Below are positions 10,726-56,532 of a DNA stretch of 58,849 nt, piece by piece. Below the pieces are notes generated by a model. It did not search any database and was not told where the DNA came from. It worked only from the letters and a program-made list of their open reading frames with translations. The DNA comes from Catajapyx aquilonaris (taxonomy: Eukaryota): the NCBI GenBank assembly GCA_000934665.2, contig JYFJ02002345.1, positions 1-58,849 on the forward strand. The letters run 5' to 3'. How positions within the stretch are numbered: the first letter of the stretch is position 1; each line of letters opens with the position of its first letter. Made by a program: the position numbers and the translations under genes.

Positions 10726-12186
10726 ATGCCTCCGAAGTCGTCCATCATTGTAGGTGCTTTTCACTGACTGGTTTTCAATCATGATTAAGCTTCTGTTAAT
10801 ATTCTGTGCAGTATTACAAAGAGATCATGTGTTTATTTATAGGACAAAAGCTACGTGGAACTAAGAAGCAGCATCTACAATAAAGAGGAATCAGATGGTG
10901 ATGATGTAAGTTACGGAGAAGTTAATGCCCATGATTGTGTGTAAAAACTTCACTAATATGCTTCTTATATTCCTCTCCAAAGACGGACGAATCAGGGAGC
11001 CTGAATGATGCCGAATCATTCCAACAACAGCAAAAACGCTCAAAAAACACATTGTCACCTAATTCAGCTAATAATGCGTCCTTGAACAAATCTTCAGTCA
11101 GACAACCAGACAAACGCAAGGGAAAAGGAAAACCCAAAGTTTATGAACCGCAAGAGACATCAAACAACAAAATGTCTAAGAGTAGTGGCAAATATGAATT
11201 GCGCGGAGGCAATTCAGAAGAACGACTGTTCAGGCTGAAGGAGCAGTTGAATATTCTGGGAAATCAGATGAAGCAGATCAGCGTGGAAATGGCAGATAAG
11301 GTTATGGTAAGTGGCTATACAGGGTGAGTCAGAACTAGAGGTGGTCAAGAAATCAAATACATCTTGACATACGTATAGTTCTGTTATGATTGTTGATTCT
11401 CTTTTAACTTACTGATACTTGTTGGAGTGCTTTTCCTGCTCATGTTTTTTAATGATAGAAGGAGGTCAGCTCCTGGAAGAAACAACTGAGAGAAGATCAC
11501 GAGAAGACACTTGCGAGCATGAGCTTTGAGCCAAGAAATGAGATCCAAAACTTGAACAAAGAAATTGACAACAAGATAGACAATTTGACCAAAATTCATG
11601 TTACATTATATCAGAGATCTAAGGCCGACGACAAGGAACTTGTTAAAACCTCATTTAATATCTGGCGAGACAACATGCTGAAAATAAAGGACAAGGAGCA
11701 CAAGGAACAGGTAAGATGCCTTTTGATTGTATCTGTACGTTCATAATACTAGTGTAAAAAATCTTCTGTTCTTGTTCACAGAGCTTCACTAATATGGCCA
11801 CGAATTTCTACAACACCAAGCTCAAGCGAAGGGCTTTTCAAGCGCTGAAAGAGAATGCTAAAAACAAATGGTCAGCACGGGTCCGTAAAAGCTCCATAGA
11901 CCAAGCGTACGCAATGGGAAAAGTTTCAGTAGAGGAATCAAAGAAAAAATATAAGCAGGTGTGATATAATTTTTATTGTGTTGTAGCCACATTGCTCACG
12001 CCTTTTCATTATTATAATTTTTAGCTGAAAGACAGCAGCGTGGCTAAAATCAAGGCTAAGAAAACAGAAGATAAAGAACATGTTGAATCAGCCGCTCTTG
12101 CCGAACTAAGGGAACAATCAAAGTACCTGATGGAACAAATGTCAATCTTGGCCCACAAAAGGCAGTGTCCGTGTCTAAAGGAATAA
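10726..12186 (+). CDS. POC5: POC5-like centriolar coiled-coil protein (~333 aa)
   Basis: Six phase-0 exons: 10726-10749, 10843-10905, 10983-11306, 11459-11710, 11782-11958 and 12025-12186. Trp-spaced Sfi1-like segments SFNIWR...ATNFYNTKLKRRAF...KNKWSARVRKS align by eye with the POC5 centrin-binding region (FFHWR...ADQYYQRTLLKKVW...KQWKDVVERA). Confidence 0.6.
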
Positions 12187-12451
12187 ATTTTAATGAGGCC
12201 AAAATTCTGATTTCAAATCGAGTTATATTCACCACACACATTTATATCAGCAAGAAATGTACCATCACTCTGTAAATAGTGCATCATAAAATCCAGAAAT
12301 CAAAAGTAAACCGCGACAGTGTTATATTTCAGAAACATTCATGTACTCTACAGTAATAGTGCAAATATTTCTTACTCAATGCTACTTCCTCAATATTTTC
12401 AGCCATATTTGCATCTGCATGTAAGTTATGTAGTACTGTACGCAATGCTGA

Positions 12452-28825: not shown

Positions 28826-31297
28826 ATGGCAAGTACAAAGGGTTGTCTCAATTTTCTGCATCGTAATTATTTCAAACCCCAATATCTTTCGTTGCATATG
28901 CTGAGAATAGGAAAATAGAAGAAAATACCGGTACCAAATCACACCACTGACGGCATCTATGAAACAGGTAAATTCTGATGAAATATGTTTCCGTTAAACC
29001 ACTCAATACCTGAAATATGCTTTCAGCGTTATGGGAACTTAAAAACTGGGGAAACACTGGTTGTGGCACCTCCAGGGACGGATAGGTTTCAGATCTTGCC
29101 TCTCACCTTGCCCAAAAACGTAGGAGGATGGGATACTATCTCCGAATTTATGACCCTGTCCGAGAAACTAGTAAAAAGTAATTATGTCACTGGTTATATA
29201 TTTCACACTAGTTTAAAACTGATATTAACTTATCTCCCTTGATTGTGAAGGTCAGATATGTGGACATTCCTACCTGGATACATTAGCCAAATTGGTTCCG
29301 CCCAAGCCAAAAAATTTTGAGGAAATCGTAAGAGCAAAAGATTTCAAATATTCACTCCGTCCTGATCCTCTACTTGCTAATTATTTTAGCTGCAGGCATG
29401 AGTAAGTATAGGCCAAAAAGCAACTTTTATTAACAGAAAAAGCATGTGTGTCATAGGCTACACACTTTCTCTAAATAATCTAATTTACAAATTGAACTGA
29501 ATATTGTCCCATGCAATGTATCAAAAATATTTTCTCTATGTAGATACTTACGCCAGGAATTAATTAGTGAACTTCTGGTACGACTTAAGGCGATAGATAA
29601 TCTTATAAACAGCTTGCTGAATATGAAAATCGAATTGCTGAAAACACTGGTAAGTTTAGAGTATAACCGTAGGTAAATTCAGTATTGCAGAATGGTTATG
29701 TTATTACTAGCTTAATGCCTTTGCACTTCAAGGAGCCTCTTCGACCTGTTTTAGTCCGAATGTTGCGAAAAAGGAAACGTAGAGCAACCGTAAGAGTAAC
29801 AACCAATGACCCGTTTGGACTCTGGGAGAAATATCAGTAAGCTGTTGTAAATATATGTACAAGTTATTGTATTTGCATTTTGAATTTTTAACAAGTTGGA
29901 GCAATAATAGTATGAACATCTGCAAACATATTTCATTTGGCAGTCAACTTTTGTGATTAACTTTCTTAACTTATTGTTGTCGACGTTGAGCCAAGTTTGC
30001 ATGACTGTAATACCATTTTTAATTTATGATTTCAGGAGGACAGGAAAGAAGTCAATAAGGCTACCTGACCTTCATGGATTTTGCTTTGAAGGACCGTAAG
30101 TGTGATATTATACTATGTTTGGAAAAGTTTACTTTGGACAATATATTCTTGCCTTGTACATTATTATAAGTGTACATATGCACGAGCTCACAGATATTCG
30201 GTCATTCCTAAAACATTTTTCAAGTGTACCACTAACAAACTTCACAACATATACGTGGATGTACGACTCCCTTTCCTAATTATTTTGTCAACCTCAGAGA
30301 ATTACGGATTGCGTCACACAACGTGAAACCTATGCCTGAAGCCCAAGCTGAAAAGATGCTGGCTAAACATGTGTCGAGTGAGACTTTCAAAGCCATAACT
30401 TTCCCTATTGAGGATAATCCACCCTGGTTCCCTGTGCCCAAAAAGCAAGAGCCCATCATTGGCGGGGTGAAAATAGTGTCGGCAATAGAAGTTGCACAGA
30501 GCATCCGAGACGAGTTCCTGAATATGAATGTGAGGCTGTGCAGGATGTATGCTCGTCTTACCAGCAAAGATGCAGGAGATATGGATGTTACTTACAAGAG
30601 GAAAGTGAAAGGTTTTTTTTTGTCATCCCCATTATTATCATTATCATTATTATCATCATTATTATCATCATTATTATTATCATTATTATTGCAGCATTCA
30701 AAATTGTTGGGATCTTGGGCCCAGAAAAGGCTCTCATGAAAATGAGACAATATGCTGCCTACAACAGATCGGAGAGGGTAGTAAATCCTAGCAAATGGTA
30801 AGGTGATTTAAAATTTTCTGTTGCATATGAAATGACACTTACAATGCACACTGTGGCTTATTAGTTTATTACATATGGAAAATACAACCTAGACAAATAC
30901 TTGTTATTATTTATTAATTATTATTTCCACTAGGTATCTCGAGCTGTTTCGAGAGGCTGTAGACCTGAATGCTCTTACAAACAATGAGGTAAGGGAAACA
31001 CTGGATGAACTGATGAAGGTTTCTGAAGTGGATGAACTAACCATACCCAACTGTAAGGAAAAGTTGTGCCTCCTTACCCTGTCTCTACCTGTCACTGAGC
31101 TCGCTAATCAGTCATGGCAGAGAGCGATTCAGGTAATTAAGAAATTAGTTAAGAGTTCATTTTCTCTGGGATTAATCGGAGTTAATTATTTGCTTCAGTT
31201 CCTGCTGGACAAATTGATGTATGCTCCCAAGGGCATCTTACAGAAGTGGTTGAAGTACAGAGGTCTTTCTAATCCTTTGGATCAGATTTTTACCTAA
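28826..31297 (+). CDS. Uncharacterised tandem family, paralog 4 (11 exons)
   Basis: M|ENRRKYR..KQ|RYGNLKTGETLVVAPP...; ITFPIEDNPPW; WYLELFRE..EVDELTIPNCKEKLCLLTLSLPVTELANQSWQ|FLLDKLMYAPKGILQKWLKYRGL. Exon 3 is 29027-29177, exon 5 is 29544-29649 and exon 10 is 30934-31132. The first exon is tentative (GC donor). Confidence 0.78.
30631..30690. repeat. (ATT/ATC)n microsatellite filling intron 8 of paralog 4
   Basis: Trinucleotide run lying between donor 30612 and acceptor 30694. Confidence 0.9.
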
Positions 31298-32483: not shown

Positions 32484-34188
32484 ATGTCTGAATTAGAAGA
32501 CTTTTCCCAGCCGTCCTCTCAAAATACAATCACGGTTCGGAATGCATTTAAGACCTACGGACGTGGTAAAAATGAGAAACCGATTCTACGCAACTTTGGA
32601 ATGACTGTGAAACGAGGAACAATGTAAGTGCGAAAGGTGCAAACGCAATTCTGAGCATAAACACATTATGCAACATTAATCAGACATTTCATTTGGAGGC
32701 AGCTACACTATTGCAGGTGGAATTGGTTGCGGAAAGACGACAATAATCTCCTGCATTCTGGGTCAAACACTGTTGAACTCTGGTGAAATTAGAATATTTG
32801 GTCGGGATGCACGTTTGTTTGGAAAGGGCATCCCTAAATCAGCTGTGGGATACATGCCACAAGAAAATGGACTCTGTCAGTCCCTATCCATATATGAAAC
32901 TATGCAATATTTTGCCAGCATCCATGGACTTACCAAAAGAGAAGCTGGGCTCAAAATTGTATATTTAATAAAATTGCTCAGACTTCCATGTAAGGAGAGA
33001 AGACTGTGGTCTCTAAGGTAAGTAATTATTTTCCTTTACTGTTCTCATTTTTATAATAATTGGACTAGAAAAATATATCCTCACGATTGTATTTTTATGA
33101 TCTATTTACAGTGGTAGTCAATTGAAGATACTTTCATTAGCAGTTGCAATGCTACACGAACCATTACTGCTCATATTGGACGAGCCTACAGTTGGTGTTT
33201 GCCCAACTATGAAATTCACGTAAGCTGAAATATTATTTTCACCAGGAAAAATGTTGACGCAGTTGCTGTATTTAACCCCCCAAAAAACCATACATCAATA
33301 GACAATAGTATAGGCCTACATGTGCAAATATTATTTTAGATTTACTATCGATAACGCACTTCAGCCTTTGAGTGCTTCAACATTTTTCAAACTACAGAAA
33401 ACACATCCTGCATAAGTAAACAGAATATATTAATAACAGCCACTGTCTCCTAGCATTTGGTCTCATTTGCAAAAATTATCACAAGAGGATAACGTCACAA
33501 TCCTATTGACTACCAGCAACGTTGAAGAAGGTCGAAATTCTGACACAGTGGGAATGATATCGGAGCAGTTCTTGATCGCAGAAGGAAATCCACACGCTTT
33601 ACTGGAGAAGCATAAGGCTCGAACTCTGGAGGACATATTTTTGAATCTCTGCGAAGATGAGGCCCCTGCTGCAGTTCATGAGCCTATTCTGGAGCCTTGC
33701 TATCGTTCTAAAATCACAGAGAAGCAATATAGACGATCGAGGCCTACTACCCGTATTATGGCTGCCACTAAGAAATTGGTCCATCAGCTGTGGAGTTATG
33801 GATGGTACCTTCTGATTTTGCTTACTCAAGAGATATTGGAAATTAAACGTTCGTTTGCATTGCTTTCAGGAAAACTATATTGCTGTTAAACACAGGGGCA
33901 TTACTCATGCTGATTGCGTGCTTCGTCTGGGGTCTGAACCCTCATGGTGTGAATGTGGCACTAGTCAATAATGAATGGCCTCAGAAGCCTTTATGTCAGT
34001 ATGATGATTGTCACTTTTGCAACCTGAGTTGCAGTTTCATACAGAAGATGGATCATGGCATGATCACATTGGTAAGAATCAGTGGCAGCTCATGGTCAAA
34101 AAAATTGGGACACTTCATAACTGATAGCCGGCCTGCAATACTATGGGGTGGTCCCCAATAATAATAATGACAATAACATCATCAATAA

Positions 34189-34273
<85 letters not shown>

Positions 34274-36922
34274 GACATGTCACAGGCCGCTTCTTTAAAA
34301 ATAACAGGAGACTAATTTAAGATTTTTATGTTGGTGATAAACTAATCACACTTTATATTTCACAGCTTCCATTTGAAAATGCAGAGTTAGCAATGAATGC
34401 TGTTCATAATGGAATTGCCAGTGGAATAGTGGAATTCCCTTCGAACTTTTCTGAAAGGGTTGAAAATGCAATACCAAATTTGGCGGAAGGATCCCTTTTA
34501 AGTCTTAAATTTGATATGCTAAGTAAGTCCTCATAAATTAAACTTATTGTAATACTGTAAATGGGGGAAGTGTGGTGGCCGAGATGGTAACGTCTCGGCT
34601 TGCTGAGTGAAAGGCCCCAGGTTCGATCCCCACCTGGGGAACTTCCTTTCACCTGCGTCGGGAGGGTCTCTGACCTGCACCAAGGAGGTGTCTGGCAACC
34701 TAACCTCCTGGGGGACTGCACATGGCCCAAAAGCCATAGGACAATGCACCTGCACAAGTGTCCCCCCCCCANCCTACCCTATATCCTGAACCAGCCCTTG
34801 CACGGAGATTGAAGAAAAAACAGAAAACTGATGGTGGTATGCCACCCCCCTAAAACGAGCCGAAGGCTCGAGCACGGGGTATCAATAAAAAAAAAAAAAA
34901 CTGTAAATGAAGAATGCCTTTAGCATGTTTGTGTAAAAGTAACACTGTGATTATTATTGAATAATGCCTAACTGTTAGAATAATAACATGTGAATGGCAT
35001 TATAGGCTGCTAGTAAGTATTGCAATCATTTCAACATTTGCAATTATTTTGAAGCATTTAGAATAAAACTAGTGCAAATATTCAACTAGGGTATCAGCCA
35101 ATTCTCTGACTAAAAACATCTGAACATTAAAATGTGAAAAGTGCAATTTATAGATTGCTGGATATCACTGTGGTTTAATATTGTTTTCATCAATTAGTAC
35201 TCAGGGCTGTTGTGGTATTTCTAATAAAGAAAAAAAGGTATCGATTCTGTGTTAGGATGGCTCAACCACTTGTTGTGGATTTACCATTAATTACACAACC
35301 CATCCAATCAACAGTTTTTGGTAGTGTACAATCGGACGCAAAAACAATGTCCGGGGAGAGTCTTCGTTCAGCCTGGTGGAGGCAAACCATTGCACAGATG
35401 TGTACACACACACTTGTGTGTACGTCCATGCTTATCTGCCGAGTTTTTTCCCTCCTCCCTTAGCTACCCAGGTGCAATGGGTTGCCTCCACAAGGCTGAA
35501 CGAAGAATCTCCCCGGACATTGTTTATGCGTCCTCATGTACACTTATAAGACAAATATGATGTAAAAAATGGATAAAACTAATATTCTTTGCCAGATTAT
35601 GAAGTAGCTGTCCCAGTGCAAAAGATGTTGGTTTCATCTTTCGACACTTTCATCAAGGAGGTGCTTCAAAAAGCCAACATATCGCAATCATTCATGGAAT
35701 TCATTGCTTTTGGAAAATTAGGTGGAAGTGACTATCCTCAGTTTGTGGATTTTTCTGCTCCAGCTGCATTAATGAAGTGAGTAGCACAATCACATAGAGC
35801 AGTGGTTCCCAACCTGTGGGTCGCGTGTGGCCAGAGTAATTTTTATAAATGAATTACTAAATAAAAGTAAAAAATAAATAACAAATGTTATATGAAATTT
35901 AACCACATAGGTTTTTTTCAACACCTACTTATACTGGGGAGGGGGGGTGGGGGTCACAGGTTAGTTGACGATCACAAAAGGGGTTGGGAACCACTGATAA
36001 AGAGGGTCTTCTTCTGCACAAGTTGACGATCTGCAGAGGAAAGGTAGGTAAGAGTGGGTGGAGTAGTCATTTGTGATCCACATTTGAACTCCAATCTAGA
36101 CTTGGCACAACATGCGCCAGGAGTGACATCCACTACCCCTCCCTCTCAACGGAACATCAGCTTGGGCAGACACACATCCGTATAATCAATGTTATAAATT
36201 CATACGTATGATGTACAAATCTTATGGCAATCTTATGGCACTGATACTCTTTACTTCCAAGTGGTGTGTTTGGAATTGCACTGATCATATCAGCTGCATT
36301 GTTCTTTTGGGAGAAACAAGATGGAACACTGGAGAGATCATTTGTGGCAGGTAGGATATTATAAGACAATGACTTATGTTGCCATAATCAATGAAATGAG
36401 TATTCATGACTTCAACTTGTTCCTGCAGGAGTGAATTACCTGGAATCCATCACTGCATTCATCTTAACAATGGCCCTAGTGACAGCCTACATCACCCTCT
36501 CATCTATGATGGTCATGTATTTAGCCTTGGGATACGTTGCAACTATTGCAGCCATATACATATTTTTCATAGGGTTGATATTGGGTGTAAATGCCGCTGC
36601 CATGGGGATGTTGGTCGGGTGCATGTGCTCGAGTTACCCTGCAGTCGTTTTCATCGCAGGGCAAATAGCAGTGCAAAATCAAATATTTGGAGGTTTACTG
36701 TGGCCCCTGGAATCCATATCTAATGCTGTGATTAAATGGTTTTGTTACTCCAATCCAGTTACCTGGCCTAGTGAGGCCACCAGAGGCCTACTGCTAAGAG
36801 GGGAAAATAGTCATAGGGGAATTCTGCACTCACTAATGACAAGTGCTGTTGGGATGGCTATTTGCATTCTCATAACACTTCTATTTCTGAATCGAGCTAG
36901 ACTTTGCAGATGTGGAAAATAA
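32484..36922 (+). CDS. ABC transporter, H subfamily, paralog C (degenerate NBD motifs)
   Basis: Nine exons, approx. 32484-32623, 32703-33017, 33112-33219, 33454-33804, 33870-34071, 34366-34522, 35596-35776, 36262-36350 and 36429-36922. Walker A GGIGCGKT, signature LSGSQLKI, Walker [15 protein letters not shown]-loop LTTSN, and GGLLWPLES TMD. Confidence 0.88.
34190..34272. repeat. (AAT)n microsatellite
   Basis: Pure AAT run in an ABCH-C intron. Confidence 0.95.
34564..34899 (+). mobile_element. Full-length tRNA-derived SINE with poly(A) tail
   Basis: A box TGGCCGAGATGG and B box GGTTCGATCCC, with a poly(A) tail. 10-bp TSD ACTGTAAATG at 34554-34563 and 34900-34909. Confidence 0.92.
35323..35544. 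mobile_element. MITE-like element with ~73-bp inverted arms
   Basis: Arms 35323-35395 and 35472-35544 are reverse complements with few mismatches. No clear TSD. Confidence 0.75.
35800..35996. mobile_element. hAT (Charlie/Buster-type) MITE
   Basis: TIRs CAGTGGTTCCCAACC / GGTTGGGAACCACTG. The flanking 8-mers ACATAGAG and ATAAAGAG match at 6/8 positions and form a decayed TSD. Confidence 0.82.
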
Positions 36923-42843: not shown

Positions 42844-43595
42844 TGGATGATTCAACGACCAGCCGGCAGTTGGTGTGACGTCACTCATATTGTGCTGGTT
42901 GCACTCGTGCTTACCGCCTTGTCCAGTGTCCACTATAATTGTCCAGCGTTCGTTTGTGACCAACCAGGTCGGGTCGGATGAAGGCCAGATGTCCAGGCAT
43001 GTATCTCATGTTGGGGCTTAATCGGACTGTCACACTCAGGCCGCGCAAATGTTCAGGGAATAACGGTACCACACGGTACACATGGTACATTGCCATGTTC
43101 CTCTGAATATATTGTCATGTTCTGTCAGCATGTGCTGGATGCTGGACATTCAGGACATTGCCAATTATACCTTCAACGGTATGTGTACTCAGCAGAGTTT
43201 GTACATGTACCGTCTGAACGCCTGGTTTCTGAACGGTTTTTCCCCCGGAACTTTCCCTGAACATGCATGCGTTTACTAGGGTCATGATCAAGCCTTTCAT
43301 GTTTTGAGTGTCACTTGCAGTTTGAATATGTTTTGCTGGTATTAATTCCATATTCACATTTATTCAGCAGCCAGCTTCTGGACCAGCGCCATTGGCATCA
43401 GCAACTGCCATACACGTACAACATCGCCGAGAGTGCTTGAACCCTGGTTGGATGTGCAGGACGTAGGTCCCCAACACTTTGCATGCTAAGGTATGTCTCT
43501 TTTACAGAAGTCAGCAGTCACCTTGTCCAGCCACAATAACTTAAAACTGATTGCACTTTCGTATTAACAAGAGCTAATAACTCTCTTGGTATTAA

Positions 43596-43987
43596 GGGTG
43601 GGATAAAGGTCCTGGCACTTATGGAGGTTGACATGATAAATGTCGGGCCTAATACCTCCATAATTACTGAACAGAATGATATGAAATTTTAGACACAACA
43701 CGACACAACAACCCTTGTCACGGCTATGTTGAGCGAAACCTGTTTTAGGGATTCAGTTAATTATGAAAGCCACGAAACTGAGAGGAATTTGAAGGCATGT
43801 GAGGAAATAATGTCCTATGAAGAATAAGGACCAAATGAGCAAAATGGCTCAACATATAGCCGCGACAAGGGTTGTTGTGTCGTGTTGTGTCAAAAATTTC
43901 ATGTCATTCTGTTCAGTAATTACGGAGTTATTTGGCCCGACATTTAACATGTCAACCTCCATAAGCGCCGGGACCTTTATCCCACCC
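43596..43987. mobile_element. TTAA-flanked MITE (Kolobok-like GG..CC termini) with ~140-bp arms
   Basis: TTAA|GGGTGGGATAAAGGTCC ... GGACCTTTATCCCACCC|TTAA. Arms 43596-43734 and 43847-43987. Confidence 0.88.
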
Positions 43988-44423
43988 TTAATCAAGTGTA
44001 TTTCTGAATAAATGGAGTACCCAGCATTACCCGAGGAAAGAAAAGTTGCAGTTTGACTCAATTTAAGGCAACTGAAACGTTAGCTACTGAAATGCTGGTA
44101 GTTGCTGGCTGAGGGTCATTAGCCTGTATCATCTGTAAGATGTAGTGTGTGTACGAGGCTCTTGATAAATATTTTTACAATCTGTGTTGTGTCCTGCCAT
44201 GCTTCCTTTCCCACAGTTGGATTTTAAATGCGTGAAAAAAAATTTGCTGTGTAGGTCACTTGTATGCTAGTGAAATAACGTATTATTTGCACCCATAAAA
44301 CCTGGACTTCCCCGAGATAAAGGGTTTGTCAAATAGTTTAAATTGGGATATGGAGTGGTTTACAATAATTGTGCTTCATGAGTGGGTGTTTCCATTGTGT
44401 AAGTGAACATAATCCATTTGAAT

Positions 44424-44797
<374 letters not shown>

Positions 44798-44881
44798 TCC
44801 ATTTGAATAGAATATTTCTAAAATTGGATTTGCCACATTTAGCCTTGTCTTGTGACCTAAAAATTAATATCTTAATTACAG

Positions 44882-45958
44882 ATGCCTGCACGATGTTGCA
44901 TCCCTGGATGTAGGTCCAATTACAACCCTAAAGGCGGGTACACATCGGTTTTCAATCTTCCCAAAGATAAACAGCGCCGTGCCCAATGGAACTCAAAGAT
45001 ACAGTGGGGTGACTACATTCCAGGAAAATATACAGTAGTGTGTGTGAAGCATTTTGATGAAAGATTCATTTTGCGTGAAGAGCAGGTGACGACGGTTGAT
45101 GGGACTGTTCTTGTCGTGCCACGTGACAGGGCAACATTAACATCTGACGCTTATCCCACAATTTTTCCAAACGGGCCATCACATTGTTTGATTGTACCAT
45201 CACCGAAAAGAGAATCTGCAGAAAGAGTAAATGAACAAGAGCCAAGTGACAAGGAAGCCTTCCTGAAATGGTGTGCTGATGATGTTATTACTTCATTTGA
45301 GACTTTTCAAGGAAGAGTGAAAGATTCATTTAAGCCTGGATGGCATTGCAAGAGTTATGAAGGATACATGCTGCTCTACAAACTTGCTGTTACTGATTGC
45401 CCCAAACTTGTTGCCTCATTAAAAGTAGCAAATGATTTTACTGTTAAAATGTACTATGATAATATTCCTGTTGATGTTAAATCACTTGTATGGATGCTTG
45501 GCAAGGAGCTCAAATGTGATCGGTGGACCAAGTTTGATAACATGTTAAACCTTCTTGATACCTACACTTTAAAGGATGTTTCAGTTCATGACAAATTGTC
45601 ACATGCAGTTAATCTCGTTAAGGATTGTTGCCTTGAGGAGGATGATGAAAATAGGGAAAAGACTGAATTGAGAAATAAGTTGGAGTTCATTGCTGAACAG
45701 ACGCATCTTGCTTTTACAAAGAAGCCCAGGTACAGTCCAGATATGTTACGCTGGTCAGAAAAGCTATTCTTCAGTTACCCAGCTGCTTATGAAATGTTGC
45801 GAGAAAGTGCTTCACTCTCATTGCCCACCAAAAATTACCTGAAAAAGACATCTTCAAATGTGAGTTCAAAGTCTGATGTGAATAGGCAGGTTGCCTCCCT
45901 GAACAAGAAAGAATGTGAAATATTTTCAGAACTTGGAAAAATTGTTAATCGCACCTAA
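44882..45958 (+). CDS. THAP zinc-finger protein (358 aa) resembling the N-terminal part of a P-superfamily transposase
   Basis: C2CH THAP: CCIPGC..FNLPKD..W..VCVKHF..AYPTIFP. C-terminal RYSPDMLRW..PAAYEMLR..LSLP is typical of the region preceding the P-transposase catalytic core. Acceptor TTACAG immediately precedes the ATG, and AATAAA is near 46050. Confidence 0.88.
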   Translation: MPARCCIPGCRSNYNPKGGYTSVFNLPKDKQRRAQWNSKIQWGDYIPGKYTVVCVKHFDERFILREEQVTTVDGTVLVVPRDRATLTSDAYPTIFPNGPSHCLIVPSPKRESAERVNEQEPSDKEAFLKWCADDVITSFETFQGRVKDSFKPGWHCKSYEGYMLLYKLAVTDCPKLVASLKVANDFTVKMYYDNIPVDVKSLVWMLGKELKCDRWTKFDNMLNLLDTYTLKDVSVHDKLSHAVNLVKDCCLEEDDENREKTELRNKLEFIAEQTHLAFTKKPRYSPDMLRWSEKLFFSYPAAYEMLRESASLSLPTKNYLKKTSSNVSSKSDVNRQVASLNKKECEIFSELGKIVNRT

Positions 45959-46918
45959 GTGAAAATAAGATGTTATACAATATGTTATGTACCGAGTTCA
46001 AATTGTTATATTTTTTCCTAGCTGTTGTTTCACATAAGATGTCTGAGCAAATAAAAACCTACATTGAGATCCTCAGTAGTGAATAATTCATTCTACACCT
46101 TATGCACTTTAACAGGTAGTAAGTGCTGCATGATCATCAGGAACTACACTCGTCAAGGTCATGAATTTTAATCTTACATTTCTCTTAAGCTTTTGTGATA
46201 AACTTGTTTTCTTTGAAGGAATATTTAGTCCTCTAACTTCTGCATAACCCCTGATGGAACTTGAAGCACAGGATCATAGTGATCCCCTGTTCATAGGCAT
46301 GGTAATAATTTAACCCTAGGTGTAGAGTTCAGCTGACCAAGGTTGATACCATCTTGCGGATTGAGAATGTTTGAAAATGTCAGATGTAATGGAGAAGGAA
46401 AAAGTGCTTTGGAACTGTTGGAGGAAGTCAGGCTTGCAGCTACTTGCGATTCAACATCAGGGAGTGAGTCAGAGGGAAAGGGACTACTACCATATGGATG
46501 TATAGTGATTGTGTCTTTCCAAAAACTTCAAAACAAGGGAAGGAAGGAAGAAATGCCAGGGGACTAGGATATCAAACTCAAGTACTATATTTCAACATGT
46601 CGTCCAGCAGGACGGCTACAGGGAAACTTTCGGATTCCAAAACAAACTTTGGAAACTTCCAATTAACAGTTACATAGCAACCATCTCAATTCCACAGTGC
46701 AAGCAACAGTGAACATTCCCATTGCCAGGACTTGGACACTACAGTATGGTTGAAAGGTAACCAATTCTACCTAGACTGAATAATTTTTGTACTGATAACA
46801 CGTATTTTTAGATCCTGATAGGGATCACAAACAGTACAGTAGATATAGTGGGCCCCCTGGAATTACCACAGGACCCATGACGTGATGCGAAAAATGACAG
46901 TTTTTATCTAAATATCAA

Positions 46919-49900
46919 TCAGCATAAGTTACCTTGCCTGCAGTAGTCATGCTCTCCTGACTGGCCCTTAGGTATACACGACTTGATAGGTTTCCCCCTT
47001 TCTTTAGTCAAAGAACTAGCACTGATGTTCTTATGCATCTCACCGCGTTCAACTCGGCCAGAAAAAGACTTGAAAAATGCTGCAGCATCCTTTGCAGATG
47101 ACGCAGATTTTTGGTATTCCTCATAGAAGTACTTGAAGGCTTGAAGTAATTCACCTCCATTACAGCCTGCTTGATTGTAGAGCTTCAGTACATCATCTCT
47201 GAATGAGTCCAGTACTTCCCTAACTTCACTAGCTTGCAACAATGGTCTCGTAATGGCAGTATCAGCAGTTTGACCTGTTGCAATCCACTTCAATTTTCTA
47301 CACATTTCGTCATCTAGTTGCACTTGACAGTTTGCAACAGTAGCAGAAGCAACTGCATCAAGGTGACTACAAGGATGTCCCATTGCACCAACAATGCAGT
47401 CACAAGAACCAGCATCTACAGCCACATAATTAAAACCATGCGCTGATTTCACTTGATACAAGCACTCACCAAAGCGACACATCTCCAGGTTTCCCTTTTG
47501 AAACCCAGCTAACTGTCCAGTAGCTATAGACAGCAAATGCTTTGCAAAATAACCGTCCAGGTCATTCAAAGTAAAGTTGAGAAGGTCTAAAACGTTCATG
47601 GTTCGAGTCTGTCGTGACATGTGGCATTCCAGTAGTGCAGCAGTAGCTATGGCCATAGTTTCAGAACCATCAGGTATTTGCAAAGAGTCTAGATGCAATC
47701 CAGAGAGAAACTGTATCCAATGAGGGTACTTTTCTGCCACAGGACTTTTGAGGACATCACTGTAAGCACATCGGAAAGCATCTGGAGTACTAGAATGCAC
47801 AGTTTTGGACACAGACAAGTAGAGTTCCAGAAGGTCACACCCATCCACCTTATTCCTTTCATCCAAAAGCCACTTCCAGGCTACTTGGCAAGTCTGTGAC
47901 TGACCTTGGATGGTGGAATGCGGAAAGCAAGTTTGGATTGGATGCATTGCTGTCCAGTTAGATTCTGCAGTTTGCGTAGGGTGACTGGAGTTACACTCTA
48001 TTTCAGGATTTGCTGCATGGTTTCCTTCAAGTTCATCATTATGCATACACTGATTTCCATCCAGGGATGTGACAATAGCATAAATGGTGTTGGGCGTTTC
48101 CTCTTGTGAATCCTGGACAAAATGGCATTCTTCTGTCTCCAGCATCTGCCCGTGGCAGCCATCAATAGATGAGTACATTTCCTGCATGTCAGGAGGACCT
48201 GCGATTGAAGAAAATTCATCACAATACGTGCTACAATATACGGACTGGGATCGTTCAAGCGAAGTTCCATTTTGGACGGGATGGCCCTTCTTCTCCCTTC
48301 TCTTGGTAACATGAGAGCTCTCTAAAGTGGTGCCACTGTGAGCAGAACAACACTTTTCAAGCGATGAATCCACTACTATTGAACTAGGAAACTTCTGTCC
48401 ACCGAATGCTCCTGGTGACAAAGAATCAAGAAAGTTCTTGAGTGCAGCCATTATCATCTTTGCGTCTGCCCCAGAATTCACCACTAGTGCTCCTAAAGGT
48501 AACTTTCCTACTGGAGAATCCACCAACATCATCACCAATTCACAGTCTTGCCTGCTCGATACTTTGAGGTACATCCTTTCTCCTGAAGTCGGCAGCGAGT
48601 GAACCCGGTCCATCAATGGTGTCCGCAGCCAAGTGTAGAACCCATCTGGAATAACCCCTGCACCCACCGCTTGGCCCTTCATCTGGCATTCATTTGCCCA
48701 AGTCAGTAAATCCTGAGGTACATTCCTCCTCACCCTGTTAGCTGACATGGAGTAGTAGAGGCGGTACACCCATTTCTTGTCAGGACAGATGGCTCTATCT
48801 ACCTTAACCTGGGTGTAATCATCGCCATGTTCTTCCATAAGCTCCAACTGGTGCATTTTCATGGCCTCAATGGGACTCAAGCCAGCAGAGAAGAAGTGGC
48901 AAAAGCGATTCCGAACCTTGTCAGAAACATCACGGAACTTGAGCTCAGAAGGTGTGTTTATCAAATGATTGTGCTCCCCCTTCAAGCACACCACTGTTGG
49001 ATGAGTAGATAAATATTTATCCTTGGATCTGGAATGCAAGAATGAAATTAGCAATAGCTCAGTGCACTGAAATATACCTCATTACAATATAAATAGTGGT
49101 AGGTTCCATTCCCGCCAAAGAAAAAATTCTCAACAAAGAAGTCTCTGAATGTTTTTACTGCAAAATGATAATTACGTTCATTGACCTTGATTTTTAAACA
49201 CATCGGTAACTCTTTCACCTGTTTCTTGCATGGAGGACTTTAATGGTAACATCCATGGTGACAGGGCATCCAGTGTGCTTGGCTGCAGGTTTTTTTGTGC
49301 TGTGGAGCTGAGGGACAGTGTTGCGATGGCAGCGGTAAGTTCCCTGTTGAGAGATATTTACAAGAAAATATTGAAACTTGCAGCAAAAATACATTTTGTG
49401 GACGACAGCTGATGGTCGTACTGTGCTGAACTATCAAATTACCTTAAACTTCACATATTTCCCATTGAATGGCCTAGTCCTAAGCACCCTGAAGGTGGCC
49501 CCACTCTTCTTCTGAAATTCAGCAAGCCATCCATTGAATTCCTCTTTAGAATGAATCTGAAGGCGAAGCTTCAGTTCTGTGTTTGGGGGACCTCTCTGGT
49601 GAACCACTTTACAAGAGACTCCAGCCGGCATCTGAGAAAGTGACATAGACATAAAATCTCACAGTGAGTGTATTGGACACATGTAGGCAACATGCATACT
49701 AAACAAGAATAGCAAAAGCAAGCCAACTTTGTTAGCACAGACAACAAGCAGATCATCTTTGATTTGTGCTAATATGTTTTACATTCAATTTTTTAATTGA
49801 CAAGTAAGAGTTTGCTAAAAACATTTCTAACATAATCATATGCACATGAGGAGTGCAAATGAAGAGTTCATGCAAAAGATTTTAAGGATTCAGAATTATT

Positions 49901-51394
49901 AATCTTTATACAGACTTCGCATTTAAAATCTCGAAAGGATTCTAGTGCAACATCGGAAAAGCTATTCTCATAAGATGCACAAACTTTTCTCCCACTAAAT
50001 TATTTCCCCTTTAACTCAGTAATCAAAGTTGCAAGTGAATTAATTTTAGCAGACTGTACCACTCTGTTGTTTGCATTTTGCAATTTCCAATCTACACTTT
50101 GTGATGAGTTTGCTGCTTTCTTACAAGAATATTGTTGGAGTTGTTCTGCATTTTCCTGGGACTTGGGTTCAGAAAGTAAGAATGTTCCATAGGTGAAGTG
50201 TATGATGCATTAGATGCTCCAGGTTGTGTTCTTCCAGCACTTGGGCAAAGATCATCTGTTGCATCCATAAGATCAGCCACATTTTCTGGTTCAGGTTGAA
50301 GCTCGGTTTGAAGTCTCTTATTCCGTGGACCTGCAGGAGTCTATAAAAATTGGTTGTTGTTGAAACTCGGTTATCACACTTGTGAATTCATTAGGCACCA
50401 TCATTTTTAAGCAGTTAAACTGGCTTATTATTGAAGTTCTGTATTAGTAAAGTGTATAAAACTAGTTCCCACAAACTAAAAATGTTCAAATGAACTTTAA
50501 ATTTATTCTTCATTATATACAATACACATCACTATGGGTTAGATAAATGCATTTCCCTGTTTTTAGCAGATCATACAATGTAATTACCACACATTTAAGT
50601 GGTTCAAGGTTGTAACTAACCTTTTTTATTTTGTTGTCAGGAAAGTAACATTTTAAAATTCTGCTCGTGAATGCTCACATTTGACTTAATTTGATTAAAA
50701 CATGAATTTAACTGGTTATCCCATTGGTTATGGTATATTAAAGTACCGTATATTAATAAATATATTAAAGACCTTCCAGTACAATACAGGACCTAATTCA
50801 GCTGGTCTCACCACGGAACCAAAATAATAACAATTGATACACTCTCTTGCATTGTAACTACATCTCGCAGCTTACAGAGAAATGGGCCCAAATTTACAGC
50901 ATCCATTACAAAATATTTGTCACCTTTACTAGATGTTCTGGGAAGTTAAAAATGGTAGGTACGCAACCATCCTTCAGCTGACGCCGATTGACATATTTTG
51001 GAAGAAAGCAATCCTCTTCGAAATGGTCGGAACAAAGACAATGATACTGCGTAGGTTTGAAGTTTTCACGTCTCACTTGCTTCACCCACTCTGCACACAG
51101 ACTTTCATTTTTTAACGGAAACCTGAAAATTTAGCAATGGGGGTTTTAATCAGCTGTGTACATACACATATCGTCGTACTGTGGTAGTACCATAATGCAT
51201 AATATTAATCAACTGTAATAATTAGCCTGTGATTGTATAGGTCTGAGGTAATTTTTAAAATTTACACAGTATTAACAGTATTGAAGTAATAAAGTGAGAA
51301 ATAATGAATAGGCCAACTTCTCTTACTTGTGATATGTTCTTGATGACGCTTTGTCGAAGACATTATGGCAGTTGTAAGCAGCACAGGACTTCAT
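46919..51394 (-). CDS. THAP + WRKY/GCM1-like + degenerate MULE + SWIM zinc-finger protein (~968 aa if fully spliced)
   Basis: In-frame GT-AG exons 51394-51327, 51122-50924, 50340-50125, 49631-49443, 49343-49219 and 49028-46919. THAP: MKSCAAYNC..KFPLK..W..RENFKPT..LCSDHFEEDCF..CVPTIF. WRKY/GCM1-like: YRCH..KHTGCP..HNH. SWIM: CDCIVGAMGHPCSH. Confidence 0.8.
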
Positions 51395-51699
51395 ATTTCC
51401 ATAGCACCACCAAAATTACTCCGGTAAAATGGCGAGCCATTGGTCCACTTGATCTGTGCAAAGTAGCTGTGTTGATAGAGCGGCCATGGGCAGTTCTATG
51501 AGATGTCTACAAGTCCCTATCACATCTTGAAAGTACGTGCAGGCTGACATCTTGGGACAGTGGTGCCAACATGACTGAACGAGTGACAATCGGCGGATGA
51601 TCCTGTAAAATCATTTGGTAAAATGACATTATTTTGAGCTGTAGAATTAATCGTGTTTAAATTCAAAATGTAAATTGTAAATCAGACATTGCAGAACTT

Positions 51700-52041
51700 C
51701 AACTGTGCGCCACATGGCGCCCCGTGTCGACCGCTTCTCGAACCTCATTTTAACTAGTGATTTGTCTAATAAAAAAACGGCTATTTGTAATAGCTATTCG
51801 AACAGCCGAAGAAGAACAGAAAGGCTGCTACTGCTCCTGTTCTTGACTTCTTGTCTCCTTCGAACCTTCTTCTCTCATCTGTCGTCTCTTTTGGCCTCCT
51901 CTGGTCACCACAGCCTCTCTTCAAACCTCCCCCCGCAATCTTTGCCGTTCTACATCTGTCTGTGCCTGGTCTGCCTGACCTTTTCCCGTCTAAATAACCC
52001 ACCGTGACGACGCAACCATTCCCCGCCCCGGGGACCGCAAG
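51700..52041. promoter_or_regulatory. Probable bidirectional promoter (THAP-SWIM gene / MED31)
   Basis: GC- and CpG-richer stretch between the head-to-head 5' ends of the two genes. Confidence 0.5.
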
Positions 52042-54763
52042 ATGGGCACTCGGGGTAAGGTACCACCATCAGGGCCACAGGTGGAGGGACGCTCCGTACA
52101 ACCTGACCCGCAAGCCGAACTCCAGATTATCAGCCGACATATGTGCATGTGTGGCATCAGAACAGTATTAGCGCAATGTGGGACTCAAAAGTTTAATAAT
52201 CACGAGCACGTTTACACTCCTGCCATTGCGTTTGTTTGACACGTTCAGTAAACTGCTTGTCCGTATGGAAAATGTAAAATTGGTCTGGCGCACCTAGAAA
52301 CAAAAAAGTTTAGCTTGATAAATTCCGTTCTGGTTCATTGAACCCATGAGAACGTACCTGTCAAAAGGGTAGTTCTATCAAACGTCGGGCGTGCATAATT
52401 CAAAACCATGGCCGCTCACCACCATCGTTAAAATTCCAGAAACATTATGGCAAAGTTTTCTGGGTTTAAGGCATTACTAGTGAATGTGAGCCACACATAA
52501 GTTAAATTTGAGTAAACTTATTAGTTCAGCTGACCAGTGGCTTCGATACAGTCGGAGGATAATTGGAGTTATGCAGCTTCCTTGCCTTGGTTTGACTATT
52601 AGTTTGAGATCTGGGCTTTATTTTCTCCCTTCACAAAGACTGGTAGATCTTTTCACTTGATGCTGGCTGTGCATGCGTTCGAGGCATGTCATTCAGTGGC
52701 ATCACATGAGAAGGTCTTGAGTGTTACTGGGGGTGATAACTTGGCTGGACGAGCGAAAGCAAATCCCCTGCCGAGAGGATGTTCTTTACAATTTTTAAAT
52801 TATGACTTCTATAGTATGATTGAAATAACCATTAGATTTGCTTTATTTGACTTAATTTTTTCTTAGCATGTAAAACTTAATAATATGTAGTCCTCTAATT
52901 TGCTGCCTGTATGCACAGCAACATTATTAATAGTGACATTAACTTGCACTGTTAAACAAACCATTAAATACTGACTCTGTACAGTATAAAGATTGACCTG
53001 AGGTAACATTCATAAGTGATGCTAATTGTTTTGATTGATGTCAAGATAGGGGAAATATGCAAAAAGGATGCACAGTAATTTTTAATGACATGCGTACCTT
53101 CTGTTGAAGTAATGTACACTGAACGTGAAACAGTCAACTTCGGAAATGAGATGTGGGGAATTCCTTATTTAGTTTTTATTGATAGCTCCATCCTCGTTCG
53201 TATTGAGATAGAGTGCAATTGCAGACCAAATGTTTGCTGTGTGCAATGCAGAATTATGGCCCTTCCCCTTCAATTGCATGGCTTATAACAATGGACACGA
53301 GGAGTTGAAAAATACCATGAGCTCAATATTCACAGTTAGTATGAATGTTTTCCATGTGAATATTACCTCAGAGAATGTAGCCAGTAGATTGAAATTATTG
53401 TAGTTGAGTTTAATCTGTAACTATCCCATTAAATCCCTCATTAATCGATCAACTTGAATGTTTATGATTTACTAAATTTTGCGAAAAGTCACAGCCGCCA
53501 TGCAGCAGGACAAGTTGGGAGGAGAAAAGGCCGAGAAGCGTTCCAGAAGGAATCCGGTCAGGTCCAGTCAGTATTTTTTTAAACCCATTTTAATAACTAG
53601 TGTGATAATTTTATTTCCCACATGTCAAAACATGCACAGACACGCACACAAAAATAAAGGAAACTTTTCGCTTGTCCAACCGTATTTACATGCAGAATAC
53701 TTCACTTCACCTGTGAGTTACTCCCCATAAAAAATTTTTAAATGCCTCTCTTTTTTTAAAGTTACCAGATGTGTGGATGCAGCAATTTAACTGTGTCAAA
53801 CATGTTTCTAAAATGTGTCTTTCCAATCCAATTTTCTAGCTCCTGAGACGGAGGAACAGCAGAAGCTGCGCTTCCAGATCGAGCTCGAGTTTGTCCAGTG
53901 CCTGGCAAATCCAAACTATCTAAACTGTGAGGATCTGTTAATTGAATGTTACTCTAAAACAGCTCACTGTACATTGAACTTTTTTTGGGTTATCTTTTTT
54001 CATGCTTTCACTATGAATTGATGAACTGCTCAGATCCTCTTCATTGTCAAGTGTAATGAGTAAGGCAATGCTTTTTGTAAGAAAACATTGGGTCACTTGC
54101 CCAACACTGAAAAAAAACAGTGTTGCAGTTGGTTTAGGGAAGATAAATTCTTATTACTATACATGTGACCAACTAAAGTTGTCATTTTCTTTGACTTGTA
54201 TAATGAGTTTAGACTTAAGGATGTTCAAGTTAACAGAAGTTTCACTGTGCCACAGTGAGTGAAAATTACTTGCTTATATGACCTCCATAGGTCGTCACAG
54301 AGCACTGGACTGATAAACCTACTTCCTTTAAATTTCAGTCCTAGCCCAGCGAGGCTACTTGAAGGATCCATGCTTCATCAACTATGTGAAGTACCTCCAG
54401 TACTGGAAAGAAGCAGAGTACACTCGCTTTCTCAAGTACCCAATGTGCCTGTACTTCCTAGACCTGCTACAGTATGAGCACTTCCGGAGGGAGATTGTGT
54501 CCCACCAATGCACCAAATTTATTGATGACCAACAGATTTTGCATTGGCAGCACTACACGCGCAAAAGAACGAAGCTGCTCCTTCAGTCTCAGGCAAGTGT
54601 CGAACAGTTGTCCAACAGTAATAACGGCACCAACAACAATGGCACACAGGGAAATAGTGGCGCTGGCAATAATAACAGTGTTCCCCAATCCATGTACAAT
54701 TCTGGGAATCCAGGAGGGGTCATGGGAGTAGGGCAGGGACCTCCTGCAGGATCAAAGAGTTGA
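52042..54763 (+). CDS. MED31: Mediator subunit 31 (Soh1)
   Basis: Exon 53840-53926 (PETEEQQKLRFQIELEFVQCLANPNYLN) and exon 54339-54763 (FLAQRGYLKDPCFINYVKYLQYWKEAEYTRFLKYPMCL..HWQHYTRKR). The first exon 52042-52054 (MGTR, phase-1 GTAAG) is tentative. Confidence 0.93.
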
Positions 54764-55107
54764 TGTGTGTGATTGTGCATTTGCTTAGCTGTAATAAATT
54801 GATATGCACATTTAATGTGACGTGTTCATAGCATTGCTTATTTTATTAATAATGGGCAAGGTTATGCTGCAACAAGGAAATCTCTGCAAAGGTTTTGTAA
54901 CTGTTTGTGATGCCAATAAATAGTTTTGCACTCCAATATTTATCCTGTTTGTGCCCTCCAAGTTAACAGGCTGTAACCAGGGCCATGTACCTGGACCTTA
55001 TTACCTCAATTGCAATTAGAAATTCCAACAAGATGGTGCACCATCTCACCCTGGTGATGAGGCATTATCTGATAATTGCATGGTCTTATCAGGTTCCGTA
55101 GGTAGCC

Positions 55108-55597
55108 CAAGGGGGTAGTCACTTCGGAGAGCCGGTGTACACCCTCACTGGTGAGCCGAGGAGAGCCGCAGAGAGCCGAAGAAAAACTAGGTCATATAAT
55201 TACGTCATATGATGAGGAGCAAATGCGCGTTTTGTAGGGAAAATCCCCGCCAACAGCCGAGCTCCATAAACGGGCCGGATTGGGGCAGGAAGCAAGCACA
55301 TATGTGACACCAAGTGTGACACATGTGGCTAATTCCAAGCTAATTCAGGAAGTAATTCAGTTTAGCTTGCGGTTGGCCCCAAGCGCCCAGTGTTGGCCTC
55401 AGGTTGGCCTGGCCTGGCTGTTTTCTCCTGGTTTTCTCAGTGTTTTCTAGGCTCTCCTCGGCTCTCTGCGGCTCTCCAAGGCATCGGTGAGCCCATAAGA
55501 CCGTGGGTGAGCCTGCTGGTGAGCCGGGGGAGAGCCGCAGAGAGCCGCAACTCAAGAGAGCCGGTGTACACTTTTTTGAGGAGTGACTACCCCCTTG
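55108..55597. mobile_element. Non-autonomous P-superfamily-like DNA transposon (490 bp)
   Basis: Perfect 16-bp TIR CAAGGGGGTAGTCACT and perfect 8-bp TSD AGGTAGCC (55100-55107 and 55598-55605). Internal arrays of G(A/T)GAGCC(G). Confidence 0.9.
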
Positions 55598-56532
55598 AGG
55601 TAGCCACACTTCGCCTTGCTGAATTTTTCCTTGTGGGGGCATATGGACAGCGGTACCTACCAGGGAAACGTAAAGTTGACACCCACTGACAATGGCTCAG
55701 CCAGCATGCTATAAAAACACATGGACTCAGATTTAATAATTTTTCTGGCTACTTTGGTCACCAACTTCAAAGTCTATTGAACAAAATGCATTTTTTTTTA
55801 GAAAAATGGTTCTTTGTACTGACATAAAGAAATGTAACGAATGTAGGTCCACATACAATCAACTCATTTGTAGTTTTCTGTGGTAATCCTGAATTTTTTA
55901 CATGCACATTGTGACTTTTGACACAAGATAATGGTTGGAATTCATGTTCCAAGTAGCCTGCATGGATTTTCAAACTGTTAGGGATATTACAACATAATAA
56001 TTCACACACGCATGCAACATGACTACTGAATATTCTTAGCCATTACTATTATTGCACAATAAGAAAACCACAACACTATTTGCTGTTATGGCCTATTTTG
56101 CAGATATTTTTCCTGATGCAGTATGCAAACAATTCTTGCTACGCAAGGTGCTGTAACTATATAGCAGGATTTTGCCATTTGAGAACCAGCAATAAAAGAT
56201 TTATTTACACACTATACAGTGTCTGTTCAGGCAGTGATAAACTACTTCAGACTTGAGAATTACCTAGCACTCTGCGTGTGTAGGCTATGTCAGGACTTAT
56301 ACATGTAGCTGACATTTGCCCCATACATTAGATCTACAGTGCAATTTTGTGCAAAATATTACATGAAGTACAGTACTACCAGGGGTACTACCTTCTGCAT
56401 GCCCTACTCCACCTTTGATGCAGGGGGTGATAGGGGAAGTAATGAGGTGCCTGTCGCCTGCCAGTCGCAGCTAAGGGTACTTCATCACCTTATCTTCCAT
56501 CTTGAAATAATACCAGTGCATATGCAGAAACA

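Follow-up and report, generated by a model that had tools for sequence, protein, structure and literature searches.

A predicted fusion of a THAP1-type head to an apparently dead Mutator-like transposase body next to MED31 in Catajapyx aquilonaris

Introduction

In a 58,849-nt stretch of Catajapyx aquilonaris DNA, here called the window, six minus-strand exons between 51394 and 46919 form one open gene model. The first three exons look like the head of an old host gene of the THAP1 family. The last three encode a body that appears to descend from a Mutator-superfamily (MULE) transposase with a SWIM finger and to have lost its catalytic activity. We lean towards reading the locus as a host-transposase fusion gene, in which the THAP1-type head and the dead MULE/SWIM body share one mRNA. 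The splices from exon 2 to exon 3 and from exon 3 to exon 4 are what we infer from the genomic sequence, and with them the protein and its function.

New transcription factors are known to have come from domesticated transposases and from host-transposase fusions. Should the join prove real, a transposase body would have replaced the dimerisation end of a conserved regulator and, together with a spider family described below, the locus would exemplify convergent domain architecture. Otherwise the window holds a domesticated animal MULE gene beside a THAP1-like one, a clear example but an ordinary one.

The gene model

We rebuilt the model from its coordinates. The exons lie at 51394-51327, 51122-50924, 50340-50125, 49631-49443, 49343-49219 and 49028-46919, the last including the stop codon. 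All five introns, of 204, 583, 493, 99 and 190 nt, are of the GT..AG type. The coding sequence comprises 2907 nt or 968 codons and has no internal stop. An earlier note, made from the letters of this DNA, had proposed a 968-residue product of this kind, and it is reproduced in frame and stop-free. The sequence features on which that note was built are real; parts of its interpretation fare less well, as described below.

A THAP1-type head in exons 1 to 3

THAP fingers carry a C2CH signature with the spacing C-x2-4-C-x35-50-C-x2-H, together with an AVPTIF-type box. Exon 1 (51327..51394) provides the ATG and the first 22.7 codons of such a finger, including C4 and C9, and ends in phase 2 inside K23. 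Exon 2 (50924..51122) provides the remainder, with C54, H57 and the VPTIF box, and ends in phase 0 at K89. Once spliced, exons 1 and 2 carry the full signature (C4, C9, C54, H57, CVPTIF). Exon 2 alone matches the Pfam THAP model (PF05485) with an E value of 1.7e-13 and a score of 51.6 bits, well above the cut-off of 23.9, and aligns to positions 21-87 of the 87-position profile. The complete C2CH THAP domain that the earlier note had read in two small exons is thus confirmed. Among solved structures, exon 2 matches residues 25-81 of human THAP1 (2jtg) at E 1.4e-16, with 32 of 58 aligned residues identical (55%, counted from the alignment), and matches THAP2 more weakly, at E 2.2e-11.

The introns in the THAP part lie at c.68, in phase 2 and before the equivalent Phe, and at c.267, after K89. 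The major isoform of human THAP1 has three exons, and reports on the gene list an 'Intron 1 variant c.71+9C>A' (PMC4049367) and a table row 'c.267G>A, p.K89K/F25fs53X' (PMC8039296). From these entries we take human THAP1 exon 2 to span from the F25 codon to c.267. The human positions c.71 and c.267 then fall in the same places as c.68 and c.267 in the window, the first in phase 2.

Exon 3 (50125..50340) encodes a linker of 72 codons that matches nothing in Pfam and is followed directly by a GTAAGA donor. It contains EHSY (50176-50187), which fits the D/E-H-x-Y motif of the HCF-1-binding type; by composition, [DE]HxY is expected 0.01 times there. In most THAP proteins this motif stands beside a coiled coil. 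Human THAP1 (PDB 2jtg, 2ko0) has it downstream of the finger, as in window exon 3. In human THAP1, a protein of 213 amino acids, exon 3 supplies a nuclear localisation signal and a coiled coil, whereas window exon 3 ends in a donor that can lead into the transposase body, and no coiled coil was found in it. When the donor at 50125 is left unspliced, the frame reaches a stop 11 codons later. No in-frame coiled-coil end of the head was found, though no coiled-coil predictor was applied.

Because of the identity to THAP1, the THAP1 intron positions and the EHSY motif, exons 1 to 3 look like the head of an old THAP1-type host gene rather than a recent P-element relic. The same three features speak against the second, recent transposon domestication that the earlier note implied for the THAP part. 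Its label of a 'P-element domain' holds only at the deep level at which every THAP finger is kin to that of the P element.

A second THAP-encoding open reading frame (ORF) of the window, at 44876-45958, was considered as a source of the THAP exons and rejected, as only 20 of 76 residues (26%) are identical to exon 2. Near the end of exon 3, a minus-strand ORF of 69 codons (50003-50209) overlaps the exon in another frame; a cccag at 50156 resembles an acceptor and would fit exon 2 in phase. This ORF was considered as a relic or an alternative coiled-coil end and was rejected as unsupported. It has no Pfam match at E<=10, and its matches in the PDB are summed 4.5-bit repeats of designer Pizza proteins. 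Codon usage is without power here: the certainly coding exon 2 stands at the 35th percentile of 407 background ORFs, with exon 3 at the 89th and ORF 50003-50209 at the 85th.

A MULE/SWIM-derived body in exons 4 to 6

Exon 4 (49443..49631) opens the body. Its first codon is an ATG directly behind a pyrimidine-rich CAG acceptor, and homology to relatives begins at model residues 158-187. Exon 5 (49219..49343) encodes the first part of a C..C..HxH finger, putatively of the WRKY-GCM1/FAR1 type, with YRCH at 49326-49337 and TGCP. Exon 6 (46919..49028), of 702 codons plus the stop, encodes the end of this finger (HNH, 48965-48973), a degenerate MULE RNase-H-like core, a helical domain, the SWIM finger and a tail. 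The SWIM finger (the family of PF04434), CxCx8CxH with ligands C808, C810, C819 and H821, reads CDCIVGAMGHPCSH at 47363..47404, and its ligands are invariant columns of a 46-row alignment (A2). The YRCH, HNH and SWIM motifs all lie where the earlier note had placed them. An insert of ~134 codons (47948..48349; model residues ~492-626) stands between the strand of the second catalytic Asp and a lost CxxH motif; relatives show nothing that corresponds to this insert, and disorder is predicted for it.

Exon 6 gave no match in a word-indexed protein search that scored 7999 candidates, the index being too insensitive at 30% identity. An exhaustive search returned 553 relatives at E<=1e-3, ten of them at E<=1e-30; the best, P0001, has E 5.8e-50 and 30% identity. 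Exon 6 itself matches no Pfam model at E<=0.1, MULE and SWIM included, and no PDB sequence at E<=1. Among the best 150 of the 553 relatives, the Pfam models MULE (PF10551), SWIM and ZSWIM1-3 RNaseH-like recur (the scan threshold was E<=0.01 for 23 relatives, <=1e-4 for 84 and <=1e-5 for 43). In a phmmer comparison, the spliced model is colinear with P0001: residues 177-487 correspond to P0001 22-340 with an independent E value of 2.4e-70, and a second block covers 627-852. Since homology is unbroken across the exon 4/5 and exon 5/6 joins, both of these introns are supported. The MULE/SWIM-derived body that the earlier note had recognised from the letters alone is therefore also recovered by homology.

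Fingers of the WRKY-GCM1/FAR1 type have a four-strand fold with C..C..HxH ligands and match the models FAR1, ZSWIM3_N or DBD_Tnp_Mut. The ligands of the window finger (YRC..GCP..HNH) are conserved in relatives. No Pfam match of this type was obtained for the exon pieces tested separately (the joined finger was not scanned), and the 23 relatives scanned at E<=0.01 gave none either. Atlas points to ZSWIM3_N/FAR1 clusters, at 0.90, for the corresponding stretch of P0001, and this is no more than a lead.

The AlphaFold2 model of exon 6, made from the 46-row alignment, has a mean pLDDT of 71.9 and a pTM of 0.67. Its folded parts reach pLDDT 80-96, and exon-6 residues 214-293 and 307-360 stay below 50. 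A Foldseek search of the PDB with this model gave the ISCth4 transposase (6xg8, 6xgx, 6xgw) as all five top matches, weakly (E 0.044-0.18, probability 0.92-0.99), with TM scores of 0.25/0.43 and 8-9% identity. Unlike the window protein, ISCth4 is an active enzyme, from a bacterium, and it has no THAP, WRKY-type or SWIM finger. The IS256 family, represented here by ISCth4, is the prokaryotic kin of Mutator. Homology and the structural model together support descent of the body from a Mutator-superfamily (MULE) transposase.

MED31 and the shared promoter region

The THAP-headed gene lies head-to-head with MED31, as the earlier note had stated. Pfam Med31 matches at 54332-54763 (1.6e-26). The RNA evidence comes from a single run, X5, with contigs of low depth; it is RNA-like, as judged from the spliced joints of MED31 (52053>53839 and 53926>54339). 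X5 contig 13, from the THAP-headed gene, reaches 51400, and X5 contig 14, with MED31 exon 1, starts at 51806. The region between them (51401..51805, at most 405 nt) is presumed to be a bidirectional promoter of the two genes.

One gene or two

Intron 1 is confirmed by X5 contig 13, which joins 51120/51122 to 51325/51327 (joint 51120>51325, cut +2). X5 contig 12 covers 50156-50334 in exon 3, and three contigs (46857-47274, 48012-48387 and 48492-48874) fall in exon 6. Exons 1-3 are covered at a depth of 2-3 and exon 6 at 6-8, compared with 23-24 in each of the two neighbouring genes. Both halves are thus transcribed, and at similarly low depth.

The join of head and body would be made by intron 3. 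Its donor shares the hexamer GTAAGA with that of intron 1, which RNA confirms, and its acceptor, tcactttctcag, stands directly before the ATG of the body, with only the 493-nt intron 3 between the two halves. The open frame, the quality of the intron-3 sites, the short gap, the missing end of the THAP head and the similar low RNA depth make the fusion likely.

Several observations weigh against it. X5 contig 13, spliced at intron 1, runs 36 nt past the exon-2 donor to 50888 and into a stop (...VTNIL*), and because of this read-through some RNA at least is unspliced at that donor. No X5 contig shows a joint between exons 2 and 3 or between exons 3 and 4, and X5 cover is zero over 49213-50014, which includes exons 4 and 5. 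The earlier note had named RNA across the junction of 50125 to 49631 as a check of its fusion; with exons 4 and 5 uncovered, the lack of this join in the X5 contigs means only 'not seen'. The exon-6 contigs are also two to three times as deep as those of the THAP exons. Exon 4 opens with an ATG at about the place where many relatives' proteins start, 5-12 residues before a conserved LP motif, so that the body may be translated independently. Human THAP1 has exactly three exons (PMC4049367), so that exons 1 to 3 might make up a whole small gene by themselves. Little weight attaches to the matching phases, as there were a few other GT/AG sites to choose from. Finally, with the best relative only 30% identical, the collections searched hold no close relative in which the join or selection could be compared.

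These points add up to a serious rival, namely two neighbouring genes, to which we give a substantial minority of our belief. A three-exon THAP1-like gene would encode ~172 amino acids up to a stop at 50092, or a 95-residue read-through form, and an independent MULE/SWIM gene would start at the exon-4 ATG or at in-frame ATGs 7-9 codons upstream; the in-frame join would be a coincidence of GT/AG sites. Besides the exon-4 ATG and the start sites of the relatives, this reading is favoured by a frame that stays open for 9 codons upstream of exon 4 and contains two more in-frame ATGs. The human gene shares not only the number of exons but the first two borders. The read-through at exon 2 and the missing 2>3 and 3>4 junctions also fit two genes, as does the absence of THAP from 149 of the body's best 150 relatives. 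An ATTAAA at 49792-49797 (minus strand) inside intron 3 points the same way, though AWTAAA hexamers occur 200 times in the window, too often to mark poly(A) sites.

The two-gene reading meets difficulties of its own. A THAP1-type protein that ended 27 residues after the HCF-1-binding motif would be without the coiled coil present in most THAP proteins. A strong GTAAGA donor would lie 11 codons before the stop of a gene that does not use it, and a strong acceptor exactly at the ATG of the body. The two genes would be only 493 nt apart, with no separate 5' exon or start seen for the second, where X5 cover is nil. The spider family shows, moreover, that the fused architecture is viable.

Catalytic loss and apparent fixation of the body

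Active MULE transposases have a DDE triad and a C/DxxH motif in the RNase-H-like core. Catalytic sites were compared in a MAFFT alignment with 83 full-length-like relatives out of 183, that is, those in which phmmer matched both blocks, all with at least 420 amino acids in the cut region. The first catalytic Asp (D1) is K421 in the window (48563..48565), where 76 of the 83 relatives have D. At the second (D2), the window keeps D486 (48368..48370), though in a low-confidence part of the structural model; 54 relatives have D here and 17 have A, the spider clade among them. The catalytic Glu is T728 (47642..47644), against E in 68 of the 83. The LLCxxH motif of relatives has become G..Q, and its CxxH is lost. 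All four SWIM ligands are kept, the first SWIM Cys being C in 83 of 83 relatives and in the window. On these residues the transposase body would be catalytically dead. The 702-codon exon 6 is still open at ~30% identity to its nearest relative after this loss, which suggests selection on something other than transposition.

Mobile MULEs have terminal inverted repeats (TIRs), a target site duplication of 8-10 bp and multiple copies. No TIRs, whose absence the earlier note had named as a check, were found around the body or around the whole gene. The best flanking inverted pair, 46799-46824 with 51514-51539, has 26 nt at 73% and no target site duplication, and was judged to be a chance match. 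A tblastn search of the window with the model gave no second copy; apart from the gene, its one match was the THAP ORF next door, at 25%. In the DNA run X1, a single unbranched contig of 7282 nt spans 44806-52052 at a word depth of 36.5, within the 33.9-38 of its flanks, whereas true repeats in the same stretch reach word depths of ~1,600-100,000. The single-copy status that the earlier note had proposed to check thus holds for the window and for this contig; genome-wide it rests on the depth in X1, possibly the run behind the assembly, and this depth is a hint of single copy and not a count. Together these results support the view that the body behaves as a fixed host gene and not as a mobile copy.

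A decaying remnant, in which the MULE part is a dead copy or neutral pseudogene behind the THAP gene and has no host function, would account for the lost catalytic residues, the large disordered insert and the failure of Pfam MULE and SWIM to match at E<=0.1. It would also fit the low RNA depth and a best relative of 30% in the collections searched. Under neutral drift, however, the 702-codon exon 6 and the two short exons upstream of it would hardly have stayed open, their splice sites unharmed, at ~30% identity. The four SWIM ligands, the HNH of the finger and a C-terminal EHxY are likewise kept, the folded parts are modelled at pLDDT 80-96, and exon 6 is transcribed. We regard decay as improbable.

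THAP-headed relatives in spiders

Only one of the 150 best relatives of the body, P0034, carries a THAP domain (Pfam 1.4e-13). A search with P0034 gave 17 proteins: 13 at 60-66% identity, P0008 and P0164 at 47%, and one mixed Tigger/THAP prediction. The named relatives come from six spider genera, Uloborus, Caerostris, Argiope, Stegodyphus, Trichonephila and Nephila, and are annotated as 'uncharacterized protein', 'SWIM-type domain-containing protein' or 'THAP domain-containing protein 4'. Pfam THAP is found at 1e-13 to 3e-15 in P0034, P0151 (Uloborus), P0152 (Caerostris) and P0153 (Argiope). P0154 and P0155 are further spider members with THAP, a MULE-like part and SWIM, and P0161 is a 518-residue Nephila protein with THAP. 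The Pfam scan found no THAP in P0156 (Stegodyphus) or P0164, and P0157 (Trichonephila) has neither a scanned nor a precomputed one. No precomputed THAP is present among the 22 proteins found with P0001 (0/22).

The spider proteins, of ~780 amino acids, have the same domain order as the window model: THAP, the C..C..HxH finger, a dead MULE core and SWIM. They provide a precedent, showing that fusions of THAP, MULE-like and SWIM parts do form and are retained. They differ from the window protein in several other respects. They are ~28% identical to its body and are not its sister in the tree. Their THAP is identical to that of the window at 12 of 40 positions (30%), and the window THAP is far closer to human THAP1 (32/58). 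Their lesions are D2>A and loss of the H of CxxH, with D1 and E kept; the window has D1>K, E>T and loss of CxxH. Their linker is short and those checked have no D/E-H-x-Y motif, whereas the window linker has EHSY.

The tree was built with IQ-TREE under LG+G4 from 84 rows and 575 columns, with SH-aLRT as the only support measure. The window protein groups with P0002 and two Eleutherodactylus coqui proteins (SH-aLRT 97). The 15 spider-clade rows form one group (100) with P0005 as sister (97), and both groups fall inside a group of 27 rows (98). P0008 and P0164, sister to the THAP-bearing spider proteins, share D2>A yet start without THAP. Because tree positions, THAP sequences and catalytic lesions differ, the architecture of THAP plus MULE probably arose by two separate additions, with the reservation that upstream exons may have been missed in other gene models.

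The alternative that the THAP is native to an undescribed THAP-bearing lineage of MULE transposons, from which the window and spider genes descend after one ancient fusion, draws on the common 27-row subgroup and on small upstream THAP exons that predictions for its other members may miss, and is very unlikely in view of the non-sister positions (the window with P0002 and the frog proteins, the spiders with P0005), the closeness of the window THAP to human rather than spider THAP, the THAP1 host-gene introns, the presumed bidirectional promoter with MED31, the THAP-less starts of P0008 and P0164 despite their D2>A, the rarity of THAP among body relatives (1/150, and 0/22 for P0001) and the differing lesions.

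A Trichonephila protein annotated as 'tigger transposable element-derived protein 6' (P0165) combines the spider-family THAP with CENP-B_N, HTH_Tnp_Tc5 and DDE_1. Its contig has the length of that of P0157, 99,382 nt, so that it is probably a merged gene prediction and not a third kind of THAP-transposase fusion.

Predicted product and the HCF-1 link

Under the fusion reading, a host gene of the THAP1 family would share a short promoter region with MED31. Its head would keep the two THAP-finger exons and the linker exon with the HCF-1 motif, without the usual coiled-coil end. The GTAAGA donor at 50125 would splice this head, in phase 0, to the acceptor directly before the ATG of a MULE gene 0.5 kb downstream, which would itself be fixed, single-copy and catalytically dead. 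The predicted product of 968 amino acids would contain a THAP C2CH finger, a WRKY/FAR1-type C..C..HxH finger, a non-cutting RNase-H-like scaffold, a SWIM finger and two D/E-H-x-Y motifs. It would most likely act as a sequence-specific nuclear DNA-binding regulator. The transposase body might supply a second DNA-binding surface and multimerisation, replacing the coiled coil of THAP1, and recruitment of an HCF-1-type cofactor would be kept. Shorter THAP-only products may coexist with the fusion.

The second D/E-H-x-Y motif is a C-terminal EHDY (46943..46954), a tail motif of the family that is kept in the window. Among 97 relatives with at least 30 residues behind the SWIM-side block, 22 have [DE]HxY in the tail (P0002, P0007, P0011, P0019, P0052 and 17 others), against 2.2 expected by composition, and it usually stands 8-10 residues after a GRPxK motif. 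The predicted fusion would thus carry EHSY and EHDY, both putative HCF-1-binding sites. We suggest, tentatively, that THAP heads captured dead MULE/SWIM genes at least twice independently, here from a THAP1-type gene that retains its HCF-1-type motif and once more in spiders, as a recurrent route to dual-finger regulators, and that with the GRPxK...EHxY tail of this lineage transposases and their descendants may use HCF-1-type cofactors. The conserved EHxY tail offers a directly testable link between Mutator-type elements and such cofactors.

Relation to known systems

Plant FHY3/FAR1/FRS proteins and animal proteins of the ZSWIM1/ZSWIM3 type resemble the window model in having an N-terminal finger of the WRKY-GCM1 class (putative in the window), a MULE RNase-H-like core and a C-terminal SWIM, and in being single-copy host genes. 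None of them is described with a THAP head. The window protein also differs from them in reaching no such Pfam model at E<=0.1, in its core insert of ~134 amino acids and in the loss of D1, E and CxxH. PMC10027918 reports that 'FHY3-like' MULE-derived genes have been repeatedly domesticated in animals.

Host-transposase fusion genes that arose by transposase capture have been reported in vertebrates (Cosby et al., bioRxiv 10.1101/2020.05.07.082677). In these, host exons with a promoter of their own are spliced to a transposase ORF through an acceptor near its start, the transposase part is immobile and the products are presumed transcription factors, as in our proposal. The window locus differs in three ways. 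Its host part is itself a DNA-binding finger, a nearly whole transposase is captured rather than the DNA-binding domain alone, and its fusion transcript is predicted. The main text of that preprint mentions no THAP, MULE, Mutator, MuDR or ZSWIM. No description of a THAP-MULE fusion was found in full-text literature searches or in term searches within PMC10027918, PMC1702500, bioRxiv 10.1101/2020.05.07.082677, PMC12062965 and PMC13631171; supplements, which could list such architectures, lay outside this search.

Other features of the window

The neighbouring THAP ORF (44876-45958, plus strand, 360 codons) lies tail-to-tail with the predicted fusion. It has an N-terminal THAP (Pfam 1.6e-13) and a weak match to a P-element-transposase helix-turn-helix (E 0.064), and it is covered by an X5 contig of 1358 nt at depth 23.5 with a spliced leader. 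Because it is only 26% identical to the THAP of the predicted fusion, its sequence indicates a separate gene, THAP9-like or P-element-derived.

The window also encodes eIF3L (Pfam Paf67, 8.8e-56) and an ORF resembling ionotropic glutamate receptors. Several copies of ABC-2-type transporter genes (Pfam ABC_tran, ABC2_membrane) lie at 4291-14468 (minus) and 33437-36922 (plus), as a tandem or inverted cluster. Three tandem plus-strand ORFs at 22527-22958, 26753-27136 and 30236-30739 share the pattern KPM...ITFP..PPW... and form an unnamed tandem gene family; a Pfam scan of the first and third gave no match.

Several repeats were noted. An inverted repeat of 137 nt (43591-43727 / 43856-43992), 93% complementary with its arms 128 nt apart, resembles a miniature inverted-repeat transposable element. 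Very high-copy repeats in X1 lie at 44401-44801, with a summed word depth of ~100,000, and at 54827-55628, with 1,600-2,200, against ~36 for unique DNA. The former includes an (ATT)n/(ATA)n microsatellite at 44677-44796.

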